From the IMG/VR virus record IMGVR_UViG_2913112809_000002: DNA of 64,000 nucleotides. The stretch is one strand, 5' to 3'. A program made the translations under genes and the position numbers. The notes under the pieces were generated by a model. That model saw only the letters and a program-made list of their open reading frames with translations. It had not been told where the DNA came from and made no database searches. Below, piece by piece: positions 858-46,600 of this stretch; position 1 is the stretch's first letter, and every line of letters begins with the position of its first letter. The DNA is from a virus. Its lineage: Duplodnaviria; Heunggongvirae; Uroviricota; Caudoviricetes.

Positions 858-1295
858 TTATTTTAAGCACTGCGTCCTGATGTACTCCTGCAGGTAGTTA
901 ACCTGCGCGGTTATCCTGTCGATTCCACTTCGGAGACGGTAATAATTGAGTTCAGCATCTGCTGTAAGTCTTGGGCTTTCTCCATCGCCCATGCCGCTGG
1001 CTCCGGTCGTTGACTTTGCACAGGTGGCGGCGACTTGCAGGCGCTTACGCCCAGCAGAAACATCAGCACGGAGACTTTCGATAGTCGCGTTAGCATCAGC
1101 AAGCTCCTTTGTGTATCTGGCGTCGAGTTCTGCTACGTCACGTTGACGCTTCTGCATGTCAGCGATTATGGATGCGGCTTTGTCGCGCTGCTCTTTATAG
1201 GCGATGGCGTTATCACGGTAATGATTAACAGCCCATGACAGGCAGACGATGATGCAGATAATCAGAGCGGAGATAATCGCGGTTAACCTGCTCAT
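858..1295 (-). CDS. Rz: Rz i-spanin
   Basis: Translation [30 protein letters not shown]... resembles lambda/P21 Rz; N-terminal TM; start overlaps R stop. Confidence 0.8.
911..1102 (-). CDS. Rz1: Rz1 o-spanin lipoprotein, embedded in Rz in +1 frame
   Basis: Embedded ORF with lipobox LLGVSAC and proline-rich stretch [13 protein letters not shown]. Confidence 0.6.
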
Positions 1296-1789
1296 TGCTG
1301 CCCCCACAAACAGACTTCACGCTCAATCTCACGACGGGTCATCAGCCCTTTCCATTGCTTACCGCCAGCGTATGTCCAGCGACGTAGCTGGTCACATGCG
1401 CCCTTGATATCGCCCTGGTTGATTTTGCGAAGAAGCGTCGATGTTCTGAAATTGCCTGCGCCCACGTTATAGACGAACGAATAAAGAGCGCCGCGCGTTG
1501 TTTCCGGTATATCGACTTTGATGTACGGGTTAATTTGTCTGGCGACCGTGGCAAGGTCTTTATTCAGGAGGGCTTTGCATTCTGCTTCGGTATACGTTTT
1601 ACCGGGAATGATGTCTTTTCCTGTATGCCCGTAACATACAGTCCATACACCAACAATATCTTTGTATGGTATGTAGCTGACACCTTCCAGACCATCGTTA
1701 CCACTTGGTCCAGTGATTAACACAGATGCTATAGCAATAGCCCCGCCACCAATAGCAGCAGCAACGGCTTTTCGTAATGATGGAGGCAT
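1292..1789 (-). CDS. R: SAR endolysin (T4-type lysozyme, phage 21 R-like)
   Basis: N-terminal signal-anchor [20 protein letters not shown] followed by lysozyme E...C/D...T catalytic region. Confidence 0.85.
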
Positions 1790-2004
1790 TATTCACCTCT
1801 CGCAGCCTTTCGTCTGTCTTCTCTGATTTTGAAATACAGATTTGTCAGATAAGTGAGAAAACCCAACACAAGGCTTCCAAGCACTCCAATCGCAGCCCAC
1901 TGTGACGGACTGACCTGATCCAACCACTGCAAAAACCAGTATCCTGCACTACCAGCAGATGTTCCGTAGGCAATGCCAGTTGAGATTTTGTCCATTGATT
2001 TCAT
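1789..2004 (-). CDS. S: Pinholin, phage 21 S-like (dual start MKSMDK)
   Basis: 71 aa, [63 protein letters not shown] matches S21 pinholin as recalled. Confidence 0.85.
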
Positions 2005-2122
2005 AGCAACGCCTCCGCCAGTAACGGATTGCGTAGTTCTTATATTGGGAAGGGGAAAAAAGAAGGCCGCAGCGTAACTATCACTGATGAATTCAGGATA
2101 GCCAGTGGCTACGGCTCAGTTA

Positions 2123-2198
2123 TGGTGCTGGTTAACGGACTTGAACCGCTACCCATTCGCTTACAAGGCGACTGCTCCACCACTGGAGCTAAACCAGC
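2123..2198 (-). tRNA. tRNA-like gene, anticodon UGU (Thr) by manual fold
   Basis: 76 nt; acceptor GCTGGTT/AACCAGC, D-stem GCTC/GAGC, anticodon loop CTTGTAA, T-arm GGTTCAAGTCC, encoded CCA. Confidence 0.55.
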
Positions 2199-2203
2199 AT
2201 ATT

Positions 2204-2278
2204 TGGCGGGACAGCGTGGACTCGAACCACGATAAGAAGGTTAACAGCCTTCCGTAATGACCTTTATACGACTGACCC
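2204..2278 (-). tRNA. tRNA-like gene, anticodon GUU (Asn) by manual fold; one acceptor-stem mismatch, possibly degenerate
   Basis: 75 nt; anticodon stem GAAGG/CCTTC, loop CTGTTAA, T-arm CGTGGTTCGAGTCCACG, 3' GCCA; T:T mismatch at acceptor pair 4:68. Confidence 0.4.
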
Positions 2279-2280
2279 AA

Positions 2281-2341
2281 ATAAAAAATCCCGAAACCGT
2301 TATGCAGGCTCTAACTATTACCTGCGAACTGTTTCGGGATT
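2281..2341 (-). terminator. tR'-like terminator downstream of Q/PR'
   Basis: Inverted repeat tcccgaaac/gtttcggga with inner gcagg/cctgc stem, followed by T-run on minus strand. Confidence 0.5.
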
Positions 2342-2552
2342 GCATTTTGCAGACCTCTCAGCCTGCGATGGTTGGAGTTCCAGACGATACGTCGAAGTGA
2401 CCAACTAGGCGGAATCGGTAGTAAGCGCCACCTCTTTTTATCTCACTACCACAACGAGCGAATTAACCCATCGTTGGGTCAAATTTACCCAACCTTATTC
2501 AAAAAGTCAATATCATGCCGTTAATATGTTGCCATCCGTGGCAATCATGCTG
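2342..2552 (-). promoter_or_regulatory. Late promoter PR' / qut region (inferred from position)
   Basis: Intergenic segment between Q stop and tR'-like terminator, as in lambda. Confidence 0.35.
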
Positions 2553-3176
2553 CTAACGTGTGACCGCATTCAAAATGTTGTCTGCGATTGACTCTTCCTT
2601 GTGGCATTGCACCACCAGAGCGTCATACAGTGGCTTAACAGTGCGTGACCAGGTGGGTTGAGTAAGATTTGGGATTAGCATCGTTACAGCGCGATATGCG
2701 GCGCTTGCTGGCATCCTTGAATAGCCGACGCCTTTGCATCTTCCGCATTCTTTCTCAACAACTCTCCCCCACTGCTCTGTTTTTGCTATATCAACCGCAC
2801 GGCCTGTACCGTGACAATCTCTGCATCTTGCGCCCGGCGTCGCGGCACTACGGCAATAATCCGCATAAGCGAATGTTGCAAGCACTTGCAGTACCTTTGC
2901 CTTAGTATTTCCTTCAAGCTTTGCCACACCACGGTATTTCCCCGATACCTTGTGTGCAAATTGCATCAGATAGTTGATAGCCTTTTGTTTGTCGTTCTGG
3001 CTGAGTTCGTGCTTACCGCAGAATGCAGCCATTCCGAATCCGGCTTGTGATTGCGCCATCCCCATAGCAGCCATCACATCAGTACCAGAAAGAGAGTCAG
3101 AAGCCGTGGCCCGTGGTGAGTCACTCATCATCGGGCTTTTTGGCGAATGAAATTTAGCCACGCTTTCGAGTCTCAT
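2553..3176 (-). CDS. Q: Late antiterminator Q (lambda Q-like)
   Basis: 207 aa, [28 protein letters not shown]... with CxxC...CxxC zinc motif; matches lambda Q as recalled. Confidence 0.85.
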
Positions 3177-13248: not shown

Positions 13249-13331
13249 GCCGCCAAGAGCGGCTTTACCGCATACCAATAATGCTTCACCCGAGGCATTT
13301 CCGTTATGTGTAAATAAATAAGGAGCACACC

Positions 13332-13472
13332 ATGCAATATGTCATTGCAGGGTGGCCTGTTGCTGGCTGCCCTTCCGAATCTTTACTTGAACGAATCACC
13401 CGTAAATTACGTGACGGATGGAAACGCCTTATCGACATACTTAATCAGCCGGGAGTTCCAAAAAATGGATAA
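13332..13472 (+). CDS. cIII: CIII (protease FtsH inhibitor)
   Basis: Manual translation MQYVIAGWPVAGCPSESLLERITRKLRDGWKRLIDILNQPGVPKNG matches lambda CIII. Confidence 0.85.
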   Translation: MQYVIAGWPVAGCPSESLLERITRKLRDGWKRLIDILNQPGVPKNG

Positions 13473-15059: not shown

Positions 15060-15356
15060 ATGCCAGCGCCTCTGTATGGTGCGGATGACCCGCGCCGCTG
15101 TTCCGGCAATTCCGTATTGGAGGTGCTGGATAAATTCAGAAAAAACTACGACCTGATAATGTCGCTACCGCAGGAAACGAAAGAGGAAAAGGAATTTCGC
15201 CATTGTATATGGCTTGCAGAGAAAGAAGAACGCGAGCGAATTTACCAGACATTAATCCGACCATTCCGCAAAGCCACATATACCCACTTCCCTGAATATA
15301 TCGACTCGCGCCTACGTAATTACCGCTCACGCTATGGCGCTATCAGTAATGACTGA
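15060..15356 (+). CDS. Hypothetical protein
   Basis: 98-aa ORF. Confidence 0.35.
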
Positions 15357-18591: not shown

Positions 18592-18755
18592 CCTGGCCTG
18601 AAGCATTCACAACGGTAGGAATTGCAATGGCGGTGGCGCTGGTGGTGTATTCGATTTGCCGCTGGGGTTGACGTAATTACTAATCCGGGGCTATATTTCC
18701 GACGCGCCAGCAAAATCTGGCGTCGGGATTAGCACCCCGGATGTTTACGGAGCGA

Positions 18756-18781
18756 TATGAGACGCGCCCGCGTCTTTTTTT
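18756..18781 (+). terminator. Intrinsic terminator ending early-left operon
   Basis: agacgcg-ccc-cgcgtct hairpin followed by T7. Confidence 0.55.
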
Positions 18782-18945
18782 CATATCGTTTGCACAGTCA
18801 CATTCGCGATTTATGGCGGGCTGTGTGGGGGAGCCGAAAGGCTCGCCGGTTTCCGTACCCGGTAGTGCTAACCCCGCACAGTTCGCCACCACGATGATTA
18901 GCACCTGACGGTGGCGATAATGTCCAAATGTACGGAGTAATCGTT

Positions 18946-19504: not shown

Positions 19505-19768
19505 AAATTCATTCCGATATGGGAATCCCCATATCGGGAGAATATTACCACCGGGGATAAAATGATTTGCGGTGAAAGGGAAGTTAAGTAGAATTGCTGC
19601 GGGTGCTTGAGGCTATCTGCCTCGGGCATGAATACCAACGGCAGATAGAGAAAAGCCCCAGTTAACATTACGCGTCCTGCAAGACGCTTAACATTAATCT
19701 GAGGCCATATCTATGCGACACATAGAGATTAGCCTCTTACGGACCGAAAGGTCAAGGAGAAGCAGGCT

Positions 19769-19924
19769 ATGAAGCAGCAAAAGGCGATGTTAATCGCCCT
19801 GATCGTCATCTGTTTAACCGTCATAGTGACGGCACTGGTAACGAGGAAAGACCTCTGCGAGGTACGAATCCGAACCGGCCAGACGGAGGTCGCTGTCTTC
19901 ACAGCTTACGAACCTGAGGAGTAA
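19769..19924 (+). CDS. hok: Hok/Gef family type I toxin
   Basis: Manual translation MKQQKAMLIALIVICLTVIVTALVTRKDLCEVRIRTGQTEVAVFTAYEPEE (51 aa). Confidence 0.85.
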   Translation: MKQQKAMLIALIVICLTVIVTALVTRKDLCEVRIRTGQTEVAVFTAYEPEE

Positions 19925-21734: not shown

Positions 21735-22420
21735 ATAACCAGTATTTACAGTTTGTTCGTGAGCAACTCATGATTGCCACCGCCGATTTGAGTGGAGCAA
21801 CAAAAGGACAGCTTGAGGCCTGGCAGGAGAATGCCATGCTTGAAACAGGGCGTTACAGGCGTAAAAAAATCCGGTACCGCGATGAAGTGACCGGAAAAAT
21901 GATAACGCGGGATAATCCACCAATCCCGGGAAAACAATCGCTTGCGAAAGGTTCGTCAATTCCTCTGGTAAGTCAGGTTGAGTTTTCGACATCATCATGG
22001 CGACGGGCAGTTCTGTCTCTTGAAGAACATCATAAAGCCTGGTTGTTGTGGTGTTACAGCGGCAGCATTTGCTGGGAACACCAGATCGCGATAACGCAGT
22101 GGGTGTGGAATGAATTTAACGCACAATCCGGTACCAGAAAAATTGCAGGGAAAACGCTGGAGCGCCTGAAAAAATTAATCTGGCTGGCGGCACAGGATGT
22201 CAGAGGATGGATTACCGGGCGTGAGGTCTACCAGCGACAGGAACTTGCCAGGCTGTGTGGAATTAAACCTGACAACTGGAGCCATAATTATGCGAACTAC
22301 TGGCGTGAGATGTGCGACATTTTTAAGAATCTTGATACAGAATCCTTGATTTGCACAGTGAAAATGAGAACGCAACAAAAAGCGACCTTTTCGCGACGAG
22401 ATGTTGCAAAAATCAATTAA
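21725..22420 (+). CDS. Late antiterminator Q-like protein (Qin quuQ-type)
   Basis: 231 aa; position before terminator, tRNAs and lysis genes. Confidence 0.6.
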   Translation: MRMNNQYLQFVREQLMIATADLSGATKGQLEAWQENAMLETGRYRRKKIRYRDEVTGKMITRDNPPIPGKQSLAKGSSIPLVSQVEFSTSSWRRAVLSLEEHHKAWLLWCYSGSICWEHQIAITQWVWNEFNAQSGTRKIAGKTLERLKKLIWLAAQDVRGWITGREVYQRQELARLCGIKPDNWSHNYANYWREMCDIFKNLDTESLICTVKMRTQQKATFSRRDVAKIN

Positions 22421-22484
22421 ATCGCGTACATTTCGTGTAAATTTGATATTTTGCCGATTTTATACGCGATGGCAAAGCAAGCAA

Positions 22485-22510
22485 AACCCGCCGCCGAGCG
22501 GGTTTTTTTA
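22485..22510 (+). terminator. tR'-like terminator after second Q
   Basis: cccgc-cgccgagc-gggtt hairpin followed by T7. Confidence 0.5.
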
Positions 22511-22744
22511 TGTCCGCAAAATGGCGTGGAAGAAAAAATTAATCAGATTGTAACTGAGATAAAAAACAATCGTTAAATATGCATTTAATAATTTCTTTAT
22601 TTCATAAAAAATAAAAACATATACGTATATTTACAAATCTTGATATGATTTTCCATTGAAAAGAGAGCTGGTATTATTAATATCGGTCCCCGGTTCCGAA
22701 GGGGATGTAAGCGCGGTCATTTTTATTTCTCTTGAGGAACCAAT

Positions 22745-22820
<76 letters not shown>

Positions 22821-22823
22821 TAT

Positions 22824-22898
<75 letters not shown>

Positions 22899-23120
22899 TA
22901 GTAGTAAGGCGAGATTGTGTTATGCACTGACACATTATATATGTGGGGATGGTTTTTGGCCTCTTTATCCACGTCCCGTTCTGTAATGAGTGATACCAAT
23001 TGCAGTCCAGTGCTATTTTTTTACACCATCGGAATGGTGCATCATCCCGATGTTGTAAACATCGCTAAACGTGACATTGAGATTAATCATATATTAATCA
23101 AAATCTGGTAATACATCCTT

Positions 23121-23148
23121 AACCGCCGAACCAGGCGGTTTTTTTTAT
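23121..23148 (+). terminator. Intrinsic terminator after tRNA pair
   Basis: accgcc-gaacca-ggcggt hairpin followed by T9. Confidence 0.55.
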
Positions 23149-23420
23149 TTCTTCTCCGGACAAAAAAAAGACACGAGCATCCTGGAATACTCGTGGGACA
23201 AGGTACTTGGTTAGCAATTTGCGAGAGGGTGAAAAAAATGGCGCGGCTGTCGGATTAAAGCCGCGGGACAAAGTCCATGAAGAATAATAAGTATCAGTCT
23301 CCTACAGGAGACGAGTTGATATTACTAAGCTTTAAAAATGGTTTAAATCCTCAGATTAACCTTAATTTCAGGTAAGTCTTATTTCATTTCTTCGCGCCGC
23401 GCCCGGCGCACATCAAAAAC

Positions 23421-23524
23421 CACAGAGCCTTTCAGGGGTGAGCTTACGGGATGGTCAGTGTGACTTTCTCTGTGGGCTGGTCACTCCTGGGGCGCAGGCT
23501 CACCCACTAAAAGGAAAAGTCACG
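23421..23524 (+). promoter_or_regulatory. Conserved ~100-nt leader element, copy B1
   Basis: Homologous to 25646..25754 and to minus-strand 640..760. Confidence 0.45.
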
Positions 23525-23950
23525 ATGTTTGGTATTTTCAAAAAGAAAACCCGCAAGGCCATTACCGAAGTGAAGAAGATGGAGAACCGCGACGCAGTGG
23601 AGGCGACCGTCTGGGGTGCGTATTCCATTGCATACGCTGACGGCACCTGTGACGCGAAAGAAATCGCGGTACTGGAGAAAACCATTGCAGCACTTCCTGC
23701 CTTTGCGCCGTTCTCCGGTGAGATTGCACAAATGAGCGCAAATATCCGCGCCCGTTATGAAGCGTCACCGCGTAGCGCGAATGCTCAGGCATTGCGTGAA
23801 CTGGCTGATGTGGCAGGAACAGACGACGCGGTGAATGTGCTGTGCCTGTGTCTGGATATCGCTGACCAGGATGGAATTGGTCCGGAGGAAGAAGCACAAC
23901 TCAAGAAAATTGCTCAGGCGCTTCAGCTACCGCTGGAGCAGTACCTGTGA
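23525..23950 (+). CDS. TerB-like domain protein (cargo between tRNAs and lysis genes)
   Basis: 141 aa MFGIFKKKTRKAITEVKKMENRDAVEATVWGAYSIAYADG..., helical; TerB assignment from recollection only. Confidence 0.45.
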   Translation: MFGIFKKKTRKAITEVKKMENRDAVEATVWGAYSIAYADGTCDAKEIAVLEKTIAALPAFAPFSGEIAQMSANIRARYEASPRSANAQALRELADVAGTDDAVNVLCLCLDIADQDGIGPEEEAQLKKIAQALQLPLEQYL

Positions 23951-43611: not shown

Positions 43612-46600
43612 ATGGGTAAAGGCAGCAGTAAGGGGCATACCCCGCGCGAAGCAAAGGACAACCTGAAGTCCACGCAGTTGCTGAGTGTGATCGATGCCAT
43701 CAGCGAAGGGCCGATAGAAGGTCCGGTGGATGGATTAAAAAGCGTGCTGCTGAACAGTACACCGGTGCTGGACAGTGAGGGAAATACCAACATCTCCGGC
43801 GTCACGGTGGTGTTCCGGGCAGGTGAGCAGGAACAGACACCGCCGGAGGGTTTTGAATCCTCCGGATCCGAGACGGTGCTGGGTACGGAAGTGAAATACG
43901 ACACGCCGATCACCCGGACCATCACGTCGGCAAACATCGACCGTCTGCGCTTTACCTTCGGTGTGCAGGCACTGGTGGAAACCACCTCAAAGGGGGACCG
44001 GAATCCGTCGGAAGTCCGCCTGCTGATTCAGATACAACGTAACGGTGGCTGGGTGACGGAAAAAGACATCACCATTAAGGGCAAAACCACCTCGCAGTAT
44101 CTGGCCTCGGTGGTGGTGGGTAACCTGCCGCCGCGCCCGTTCAACATCCGGATGCGCAGGATGACACCGGACAGCACCACAGACCAGCTGCAGAACAAAA
44201 CGCTCTGGTCGTCATACACCGAAATCATCGATGTGAAACAGTGCTACCCGAACACGGCACTGGTCGGCGTGCAGGTGGATTCGGAGCAGTTCGGCAGCCA
44301 GCAGGTGAGCCGTAATTATCATCTTCGCGGGCGCATTCTGCAGGTGCCGTCGAACTATAACCCGCAGACGCGGCAATACAGCGGTATCTGGGACGGAACG
44401 TTTAAGCCAGCATACAGCGACAATATGGCCTGGTGTCTGTGGGATATGCTGACCCACCCGCGCTACGGCATGGGGAAACGTCTTGGTGCGGCGGATGTGG
44501 ATAAATGGGCGCTGTATGTCATCGGCCAGTACTGCGACCAGTCTGTACCGAATGGTTTTGGTGGCACGGAGCCGCGTATCACCTGTAATGCCTACCTGAC
44601 CACACAGCGTAAGGCGTGGGATGTGCTCAGTGATTTCTGCTCGGCGATGCGCTGTATGCCGGTATGGAACGGGCAGACGCTGACGTTCGTGCAGGACCGA
44701 CCGTCGGATAAGGTGTGGACCTATAACCGCAGTAATGTGGTGACGCCGGATGATGGCGCGCCGTTCCGCTACAGCTTCAGCGCCCTGAAGGACCGCCATA
44801 ATGCCGTTGAGGTGAACTGGATTGACCCGAATAACGGCTGGGAGACAGCGACAGAGCTTGTGGAGGACACGCAGGCCATTGCCCGTTACGGTCGTAACGT
44901 CACGAAGATGGATGCCTTTGGCTGTACCAGTCGGGGGCAGGCGCACCGCGCCGGGCTGTGGCTGATTAAAACGGAGCTGCTGGAAACGCAGACCGTGGAC
45001 TTCAGCGTGGGCGCAGAAGGGCTTCGCCATGTACCGGGCGATGTCATTGAAATCTGTGATGATGACTATGCGGGGATCAGCATCGGCGGGCGTGTGCTGG
45101 CGGTGAACAGCCAGACCCGGACGCTGACGCTCGACCGTGAAATCACGCTGCCATCCTCCGGCACCACGCTGATAAGCCTGGTTGACGGGCAGGGGAATCC
45201 GGTCAGCGTGGAGGTCCAGTCCGTCACCGACGGCGTGAAGGTGAAAGTGAGCCGGGTTCCTGACGGCGTTGCCGAGTACAGCGTGTGGGGGCTGAAGCTG
45301 CCGACGCTGCGCCAGCGCCTGTTCCGCTGCGTGAGTATCCGTGAGAATGACGACGGCACGTATGCCATCACCGCTGTGCAGCATGTGCCGGAGAAAGAGG
45401 CCATCGTGGATAACGGGGCGCACTTTGACGGCGACCAGAGCGGCACGGTGAATGGTGTCACGCCGCCAGCGGTGCAGCACCTGACCGCAGAAGTCACCGC
45501 AGACAGCGGGGAATACCAGGTGCTGGCGCGCTGGGATACGCCGAAGGTGGTGAGGGGGGTGAGCTTTATGCTTCGCCTGACCGTGGCAGCGGATGACGGC
45601 AGTGAGCGGCTGGTCAGCACGGCCAGGACGACGGAAACCACATACCGCTTCACGCAACTGGCGCTGGGAAATTACAGGCTGACAGTCCGGGCGGTAAATG
45701 CGTGGGGACAGCAGGGCGATCCGGCATCGGTATCGTTCCGGATTGCCGCACCGGCAGCACCGTCGCGGATTGAGCTGACGCCGGGCTATTTTCAGATAAC
45801 CGCCACGCCGCATCTTGCGGTTTATGACCCGACGGTACAGTTTGAGTTCTGGTTCTCGGAAAAGCGGATTGCGGATATCAGGCAGGTTGAAACCACAGCA
45901 CGCTATCTTGGTACGGCGCTGTACTGGATAGCCGCCAGTATCAATATTAAGCCGGGCCATGATTATTATTTTTATATCCGCAGTGTGAATACTGTTGGTA
46001 AATCGGCATTCGTGGAGGCTGTCGGTCGGGCGAGCGATGATGCGGAAGGTTACCTGGATTTTTTCAAAGGCCAGATAACCGAATCCCATCTCGGCAAGGA
46101 GCTGCTGGAAAAAGTCGAGCTGACGGAGGATAACGCCAGCAAACTGGAGGAGTTTTCGAAAGAGTGGAAGGACGCCAACGATAAATGGAATGCCATGTGG
46201 GGCGTCAAAATTGAGCAGACCGAAGACGGCAAACATTATGTCGCGGGGCTTGGCCTCAGCATGGAGGATACAGAGGAAGGCAAACTGAGCCAGTTCCTGG
46301 TTGCCGCTAACCGTATCGCGTTTATTGATCCGTCCAGTGGCAACACGAAACCGATGTTTGTGGCGCAGGGCAACCAGATATTCATGAACGAAGTGTTTCT
46401 GAAATATCTGACGGCTCCCACCATTACCAGCGGCGGTAATCCTCCGTCATTTTCCCTTACACCGGACGGGCGGCTGACGGCGAGAAATGCCGATATCAGC
46501 GGTAACGTGAATGCGAACTCCGGGACGCTCAATAATGTCACGGTAAATGAAAACTGTACGATTAAGGGCATGCTGGAGGCGAACCAGGTCAGAGGTGACT

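Follow-up and report, generated by a model that had tools for sequence, protein, structure and literature searches.

The locus described here raises the question of what specific purpose two tRNA genes may serve in a small temperate phage, and whether both of them are sound. The window (the whole stretch of DNA that was analysed, 64,000 nucleotides (nt) of the IMG/VR virus record IMGVR_UViG_2913112809_000002, Caudoviricetes) carries on its minus strand a tRNA-Asn(GUU) gene at 2204-2278 and a tRNA-Thr(UGU) gene at 2123-2198, which are transcribed in this order and are separated by the 5-nt spacer AAUAU (2199-2203). A sequence-only reading had described them as two tRNA-shaped sequences lying 5 nt apart between the terminator tR' and the lysis cassette, and it considered the Thr gene clean and the Asn gene possibly decayed. 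Both are, almost beyond doubt, genuine and conserved tRNA genes of an already known cassette. When three judgements are combined, counter-defence against tRNA-cutting nucleases is the best overall explanation of the pair, and we regard it as fairly probable.

Two tRNA genes and their conservation

The two genes were called by ARAGORN with exactly the coordinates and the anticodons that had been read from the sequence. The Rfam tRNA model (RF00005, gathering score 29) gave 56.5 bits for tRNA-Thr (E-value 1.6e-9) and 55.3 bits for tRNA-Asn (E-value 3.4e-9, both E-values being for the whole 64-kb window), and these scores are far above chance. Altogether ARAGORN found four tRNA genes in the window, and both programs, which had been suggested as checks, recovered every gene of the two tRNA loci, in the case of Rfam above the gathering score. 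When 2050-2400 was searched for other RNA families at a relaxed E-value, the two tRNAs were the only matches. The 3' CCA is encoded in both genes. The identity set of the E. coli asparaginyl-tRNA synthetase consists of the anticodon GUU and G73, and that of the threonyl-tRNA synthetase of G1-C72, C2-G71, G35 and U36. As far as sequence goes, tRNA-Asn presents the first set (G34-U35-U36 and the discriminator G73, the charging itself being a prediction) and tRNA-Thr the second (GC...GC acceptor ends and the UGU anticodon). All core nucleotides are present in tRNA-Asn (U8, A14, G18-G19, A21, U33 and the T-loop GTTCRA); tRNA-Thr has C14 instead of A14 in every cassette copy, and G21 in this window alone.

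The acceptor-stem mismatch and the weak D-stem first noticed in the Asn gene are real, since the Rfam alignment marks U4·U69 and U13·U22 as non-pairs. However, base for base this tRNA-Asn is the majority allele (55 pattern matches), and the allele is identical across phages of E. coli, Salmonella and Shigella. U4·U69 was found in 81 of the 88 clade copies, the remainder having U·C (6) or U·G (1), and in sister alleles it is unchanged while compensating changes appear at 5:68, 6:67, 7:66 and 28:42. G73 is kept in 83 of the 88 cassette copies and CCA in 85. In the wider family of the Asn scaffold (43 distinct sequences) 92.8% of the cells were paired versus 67.4% in shuffles and 35-51% in slid controls, and 16 of the 21 pairs had changed on both sides; in this set the D-arm and the anticodon loop were fixed by the search pattern, and the invariant U13·U22 was forced likewise. 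At 4:69 more distant relatives show U-A, C-G, U·G or G-C, and the U4·U69 mismatch therefore characterizes the lambdoid clade. U13·U22 also occurs in the functional host glyT, and on the D-arm of glyT RNAfold fails too. Versions that are truly broken look different: a 24-nt stump in the Stx2c phage 1717 (Stx, Shiga toxin), an Asn/Gly chimera (L069) and, in phage L, a second gene that has degenerated. A tRNA pseudogene would be marked by disabling lesions that are specific to a lineage and not conserved, which is not what tRNA-Asn shows. Judged from its sequence, tRNA-Asn is non-canonical but conserved, and of the two descriptions offered for it, decayed or non-canonical, only that of decay appears to be wrong.

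It was the Thr gene, described as folding cleanly, for which the first impression had to be corrected. Besides C14 and two private changes in the D-loop, which are discussed below, it has a conserved non-pair, G27·A43, at the base of the anticodon stem in the Rfam alignment. The whole anticodon arm (GUCGC-CUUGUAA-GCGAA) equals that of the phage 21 tRNA-Thr and is near-invariant in more than 70 cassettes, mismatch included, while the acceptor stem covaries (GCUGGUU/AACCAGC to GCCGGCU/AGCCGGC). Thus the G27·A43 of the supposedly clean tRNA is a functional feature. Stem mismatches in phage tRNAs, such as G27·A43 and U4·U69, are therefore sometimes conserved, at least one of them being functional, and should not be annotated as decay.

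Both products are elongator tRNAs of phage lineage and not host copies. The Thr gene is 87% identical to that of N4, 81% to that of P1 and 70.5% to the host thrU. For tRNA-Asn the identity is 69% to glyT and 61.5% to the host asnT, and its scaffold recurs in large tRNA arrays of many big lytic phages. An origin of tRNA-Asn from a glyT-like gene by anticodon change was also considered, but a D-arm match of 15/18 (our own count) with 69% identity overall is too weak to claim it. In P1 the Asn gene is followed by the Thr gene at 2 nt, and in N4 the order is Asn-Ser-Thr. No relatives nearer than these two Thr genes were found, but the Asn genes of P1 and N4 are built on another, ordinary scaffold, unlike that of the window.

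A mobile cassette behind the late terminator

The region transcribed ahead of the pair is that of lambda. A 207-aa open reading frame (ORF) at 2553-3176 on the minus strand encodes a lambda-type late antiterminator Q (Pfam PF03589, Antiterm, 1.3e-57; about 97% DNA identity to lambda Q). The promoter scan gave TTGACT-17-TAAATT at 2482-2510 (minus strand), inside a stretch 97% identical to lambda 44363-44781; we take it to be the late promoter pR' from its position in this homology and from what is generally held about lambda, the promoter being unannotated in the lambda record. The terminator tR', at the end of the 6S leader, occupies 2279-2341 (minus strand), with the hairpin at 2341-2287 and the U-run ending at 2279. 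Its hairpin folds with -28.2 kcal/mol in RNAfold (z = -6.4). Since the terminator scan misses this long interrupted hairpin, homology and folding were used for its location instead, and phage 21 has an annotated terminator at the matching position.

The lambda homology of Q, pR' and 6S/tR' (97%) stops at 2281, 3 nt before the 5' end of tRNA-Asn. It resumes in the downstream flank at 2063-2121 (minus strand; 93% to lambda by blastn and pairwise alignment), and this flank marks the joint on the right of the cassette replacement. Beyond the tRNAs, 118 nt from tRNA-Thr, the late genes start with an S21-type pinholin/antiholin that has the dual start MKSM (1789-2004, minus strand; 98.8% DNA identity to the S21-71/S21-68 gene of phage 21). 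Next to it lies a 165-aa ORF (1292-1789, minus strand), the phage 21 counterpart of which is annotated as a signal-arrest-release (SAR) endolysin, in a stretch 98.8% identical to phage 21. The end of the lambda homology at 2281 and the start of the holin at 2004 thus bear out the position first given for the pair, between tR' and the lysis cassette. No promoter-like site was detected between tR' and the tRNAs in the promoter scan; therefore, in the simplest reading, the tRNAs would be made only from Q-modified read-through transcripts.

The cassette so delimited is 159 nt long (2122-2280), begins 0-3 nt past tR' and consists of the two tRNA genes. The window is matched by lambda and by a prophage of E. 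coli MLI108K3 as far as 2281, and the match resumes at 2121; between these homologous flanks the two have 163 and 155 nt, respectively, of unrelated DNA. In this lambda and empty-site DNA no tRNA remnant was found by ARAGORN, and the alignment was at noise level except for a short AACAGCAC..CCA patch by the joint. In lambda (L131, approx. 540-560) the right-hand joint reads AACAGCAC-AAC-CCA-AACTGAG, and in the cassette (window 2123-2135) AACCAGCACCA-T-AACTGAG. The patch may be a relic of the 3' end of tRNA-Thr, or chance.

Phage 21, phage L, JLK-2012 and mEp506 have the unit of Asn, 5 nt and Thr immediately past their late terminator, and the antiterminators in front of it are of three types, namely Q21 (phage 21), the P22 gp23 type (phage L) and lambda Q (mEp506). 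In a pattern scan of IMG/VR 69 of the 120 matches were Asn-Thr arrays with the 5-nt spacer, and this spacing was present in 69 of the 77 Asn-Thr arrays found there. Most of the clade cassettes (74/88) abut the T-run of a terminator, of the 21 type or of the lambda type, and then ATTT. The cassette was found in 369 of 5426 complete E. coli genomes. A 26-nt pattern from the Asn anticodon to the T-arm, with one free position, occurred in 6 contigs among the representatives of 185,579 bacterial species, four from Enterobacteriaceae and two from metagenome-assembled genomes of the gut. Because of this rarity the cassette looks like accessory DNA, mostly prophage-borne, and not like a housekeeping tRNA locus. 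It travels as one unit among the lambdoid phages.

The cassette itself is not new. It is annotated in phage 21, SfI, BTP1, mEp506 and Kapi1, and it was described in 2013, when tandem Asn(GUU) and Thr(UGU) genes were reported downstream of Q in SfI and also in Sf6, ST64T, PS3 and p21 (Sun et al. 2013, PMC3636060). The pair of those phages is the same element as that of the window. In phage 21 (OL657228.1, 39591-39746) the gene order, the 5-nt spacing and the slot after the late terminator and before S21 are like those of the window; the Asn genes are identical, and the Thr genes agree in 74 of 76 nt, the anticodon arm being the same. The window differs in one position of the spacer (2201) and in the two private changes of the Thr D-loop (2183, 2178). 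The cassette of phage 21 lies behind Q21, whereas that of the window lies behind the lambda-type Q/pR'/tR', an arrangement shared with HK446 and mEp506. Phage L (species Lederbergvirus ST64T) carries as its second gene a degenerate sequence of 72 nt (L003, 1291-1362; annotated as Leu(TAA), no call by ARAGORN), while the Thr gene of the window is intact. ST64T matches the window over the same stretch and with the same identity as phage L, and it probably has the same degenerate form.

Rearranged versions could also be observed. In the Stx2c phage 1717 (L133, 1201-1234) the first 24 nt of tRNA-Asn stand right after a Q21-type late terminator, and beyond them come unrelated DNA, ileZ-argN-argO and stx2. 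The stump appears to be what is left of the cassette. The ileZ-argN-argO genes upstream of stx in Stx phages occupy the same slot, from the late terminator to the first late genes, but they are for rare Ile and Arg codons, unlike the window pair; in phage 1717 they lie about 200 nt past the terminator, behind the Asn stump. JLK-2012 (L004, 1291-1366) has a chimeric Thr gene, of phage type in its 5' half and of thrU type in its 3' half, with 3 bp in the anticodon stem; ARAGORN gave no call for this gene. In L069 an Asn gene is fused to a Gly gene with the joint in the T-arm. The tRNA arrays of these phages recombine with one another. In L005, L109 and similar Klebsiella-type cassettes the arrays are enlarged to Asn-Phe-Thr-Arg, with or without Gly, and the anticodon stem of their Asn allele is GCAGG/CCUGC. 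The lambdoid-type Escherichia phage PhiR47_1 (H123) is annotated with Thr-Gly-Lys, therefore some relatives also have tRNA-Lys, the main target of the nuclease AriB treated below, which is absent from the window.

Possible purposes of the Asn-Thr pair

For the Thr member an experimentally supported role exists in the classic P2-lambda interference. The effector of this interference, P2-OLD, kills cells: it cleaves the host tRNA-ThrU(UGU) at paired CNG motifs (positions 28-30 and 40-42) and thereby detaches the anticodon arm, and its substrates have the paired CNG motifs and A37 in common (Govande et al. 2025, PMC12445682). In the same study thrU is given as the sole tRNA with a UGU anticodon in E. 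coli K-12, and phage Thr(UGU) tRNAs, that of phage 21 included, were shown to suppress the toxicity of P2-OLD, whereas the host tRNA-ThrU gives little or no protection in the assay. The phage 21 tRNA-Thr, with its 'shorter anticodon stem' and C28U/G42A, was cleavage-resistant in vitro; its C14 allele was functional in vivo and rescued ACA decoding. For a phage Thr tRNA the anticodon was needed for rescue (PMC12445682). The window tRNA-Thr matches this description in its UGU anticodon, its shortened stem and its altered CNG motifs, having G27·A43, U28-C-G and C40-G-A where thrU has C28-U-G and C40-A-G. The Thr gene of P1 differs from it by CNG on both strands, a full 5-bp stem and its context, the C1-controlled ban operon. 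That the Thr member has the counter-defence role demonstrated in phage 21 seems quite probable to us.

The role of the Asn member, described as unclear in 2013, may lie in the same arms race, a possibility that is open to direct test. PARIS AriB cuts host tRNAs between positions 40 and 41 beside a UAAU motif; its targets are Lys(UUU) and Thr(UGU), with Asn(GUU) as a secondary but biologically relevant one, and a U39-to-A change in tRNA-Lys abolishes the cleavage (Belukhina et al. 2025, PMC12409363). PARIS protects against lambda too (PMC9122126), and the time courses of P2-OLD cleavage included the host tRNA-Asn among the probed tRNAs (PMC12445682). The anticodon stem of the host asnT is GCGGA/UCCGU and that of the window tRNA-Asn is GAAGG/CCUUC. 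At 28-30 and 40-42 asnT has CGG and CCG, and the window tRNA has AAG and CUU, hence no CNG. At positions 36-41 asnT has UAAUCC, with the AriB cut before the last C, and the window tRNA has UAACCU; in the Thr tRNAs the same positions read UAAUCA in thrU versus UAAGCG in the window. Substitutions in the AriB site (U36-A-A-U39-C40-N41, cut before N41) are thus present in both members. Since tRNA-Asn is without CNG and UAAU and tRNA-Thr has altered motifs, the cassette carries exactly the two non-lysine specificities that these P2- and P4-borne nucleases attack, with the recognition motifs removed.

A comparable set is known from T5, the rescue of which from PARIS needs its Lys, Thr and Asn variants together (PMC12409363). 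These variants (PMC11464382, PMC12409363) share the Thr(UGU) and Asn(GUU) specificities with the window. A nucleotide other than U at position 39, at or by the cleavage site between 40 and 41, is found in the Thr and Asn tRNAs of T5 and likewise in the window Thr (G39) and Asn (C39). The scaffolds are different (about 61% identity for Asn, below 70% for Thr), the window is without the tRNA-Lys partner, and the tRNA region of T5 holds more than 20 tRNA genes in contrast to the two-gene cassette in the late operon.

In the mechanism that we propose, Q would let RNA polymerase read through from pR', by which the cassette would be transcribed with the lysis and virion genes, and host tRNA-processing enzymes would presumably excise the tRNAs from the late transcript. 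P2-OLD kills lambda-infected P2 lysogens by cutting thrU, the only ACA-reading tRNA of the host. The phage tRNA-Thr would be a poor substrate owing to G27·A43 and U28/A42; it could take over ACA decoding and would also add ACA capacity. Most likely tRNA-Asn would play the same role for the second-rank target of the same nuclease class. Taken by itself, a counter-defence role of the Asn member is possible, but we would stop short of calling it probable. The same caution holds for the complete form of the proposal, which we put forward tentatively: the Asn-Thr pair may be a matched counter-defence cassette against P2/P4-borne Toprim tRNA nucleases (P2-OLD, PARIS AriB) and mirror their principal non-lysine targets, with tRNA-Asn as a substitute that withstands cleavage and relieves the growth defect still present when Thr alone is replaced, and perhaps with U4·U69 as a part of it.

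Several observations weigh against this proposal. The cassette tRNA-Asn is mentioned neither in the paper on P2-OLD (PMC12445682) nor in that on AriB (PMC12409363), and the rescue from P2-OLD by phage Thr tRNAs was only partial (PMC12445682). None of the four tRNAs that ARAGORN found in the window is a tRNA-Lys(UUU), the main target of AriB, without which there is no rescue from the B185 PARIS system (PMC12409363); the Asn-Thr pair alone would therefore not defeat B185 PARIS. A sister Asn allele that occurs in a Klebsiella phage and in 14 of the 88 cassettes has the stem GCAGG/CCUGC or GCAGG/CCUGU with CNG on both strands, therefore the loss of CNG is no property of the whole clade; the Asn alleles of E. 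coli, Salmonella and Shigella phages that were examined, unlike the Klebsiella-type cassettes, do not have CNG on both strands. The pairs C31-G39 and G31-C39 could simply be ancestry, and many lytic-phage relatives of the Asn scaffold have A31-U39. The first of the two phages in the window, the carrier of the cassette, has a P22-type Abc2 and not lambda Gam, which triggers P2-OLD. Finally, with its private changes the D-arm of the Thr tRNA is predicted to be held in a 6-bp helix with a 4-nt loop.

Pure codon supplementation during the late protein burst, for ACA and for AAU/AAC, is a different explanation, in which the odd stems would be neutral foreign ancestry. In order to compare codon usage, the same crude ORF calling was applied to the window and to a 50-kb sample of K-12. 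ACA made up 13.4-14.0 per 1000 codons in the window phages and 5.3 in the K-12 sample, an enrichment of about 2.5 times in both phages; a similar ACA bias was reported for SfI (17.3% vs 7.1%; PMC3636060), and the host has thrU as its sole UGU tRNA. For Asn the effect is small, with 42-47 codons per 1000 versus 35 (1.2-1.3 times) and an unchanged share of AAU among the Asn codons, and the authors on SfI saw no Asn bias and called the role of its tRNA-Asn unclear (Sun et al. 2013, PMC3636060). Supplementation thus fits the Thr gene and is weak for the Asn gene. Moreover, carriers of the lambda-type Q and flanks without the cassette exist (lambda and the empty-site prophages). Nor would supplementation explain why protection is given by the phage allele and not by the host thrU (PMC12445682), or why the Thr anticodon arm, mismatch included, stays near-invariant while the other stems drift. 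As the whole explanation we regard it as unlikely, though supplementation and counter-defence can coexist.

It may also be asked whether the Thr gene of this window, and not the Asn gene, is the impaired one. Two A-to-G changes at 2183 and 2178 (positions 16 and 21) turn the D-loop sequence CAAUGGUA into CAGUGGUG, a variant that was present in 0 of 78 related loci and 0 of 344 E. coli genomes with this tRNA, the best identity being 97.4%. Position 21 is A in every other Thr copy, and RNAfold predicts for the private allele a D helix of 6 bp with the 4-nt loop GUGG (-29.1 vs -23.7 kcal/mol). The changes may thus make the D-arm rigid, or they may be sequencing errors. However, the predicted loop leaves G18 and G19 free, the gene still reaches 56.5 bits with Rfam, and there are no changes elsewhere in it or anywhere in the Asn gene. 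Besides, the D-loop positions 16 and 17 are variable in tRNAs generally. Impairment or error in the Thr gene is, in our opinion, a rather improbable account.

A role of the tRNAs mainly as RNA-processing signals, in which decoding would come second to the separation of the late mRNA from the 6S leader and the terminator hairpin by cuts of RNase P and RNase E, has in its favour that the 5' end of tRNA-Asn comes immediately after the terminator U-run and that this junction is conserved behind two unrelated terminators. It is nevertheless highly improbable in view of the conserved anticodons, identity elements (G73; G1-C72, C2-G71) and CCA, the need for the anticodon of a phage Thr tRNA in the rescue (PMC12445682) and the absence of a tRNA at this site in lambda. 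Least of all do we believe that tRNA-Asn is decaying or non-functional: its two non-Watson-Crick pairs and the lack of a clean D-arm in RNAfold alone speak for it, but its conserved allele, G73 and CCA, the compensated neighbours of U4·U69 and the covariation behind all the other stems speak against it.

The second tRNA pair and other features of the window

The other two tRNA genes of the window belong to its second phage, where an analogous pair on related scaffolds had been pointed out at 22745-22898. Its existence was confirmed by ARAGORN and Rfam, with tRNA-Thr(UGU) at 22745-22820 (plus strand, 71.8 bits) and tRNA-Gly(UCC) at 22824-22898 (plus strand, 65.6 bits), but the analogy holds only loosely. 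The Thr gene is 1 nt away from thrU (98.7% identity) and the Gly gene one compensated pair away from glyT (97.3%), whereas their identities to the first pair are only 70.5% and 66.7%. The second-pair Thr has the nuclease-sensitive stem ACUGA/UCAGU. These are host-type copies and stand outside the Asn-Thr cassette.

In the second phage a Q-like gene (PF06323) and a terminator at 22483-22506 are followed by the tRNA pair about 240 nt after the terminator. A promoter-like site, TTGAAA-16-TAATAT, lies at 22656-22683 in an AT-rich region ahead of the tRNAs, and a TerB/TciA-like ORF (23438-23950) follows them. The layout of 22400-23950 resembles JLK-2012 and the tciA region of P1. JLK-2012 links both arrangements, as it has Asn, the chimeric Thr and Gly, and then tciAB.

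The anti-RecBCD gene abc2 of the first phage was located at 15060-15356 on the plus strand (PF11043, 9e-61), downstream of cIII in the gam slot of lambda. Among other RNA families, Rfam matched the lambda cIII thermoregulator at 13319-13377 and the cluster of isrK, C4 antisense RNA and c4-a1b1 at 18691-18893, all of them above the gathering score. The sok antitoxin RNA was matched, also above that score, at 19601-19771 with 101 bits, which points to a hok/sok-type module near the junction of the two phage regions.

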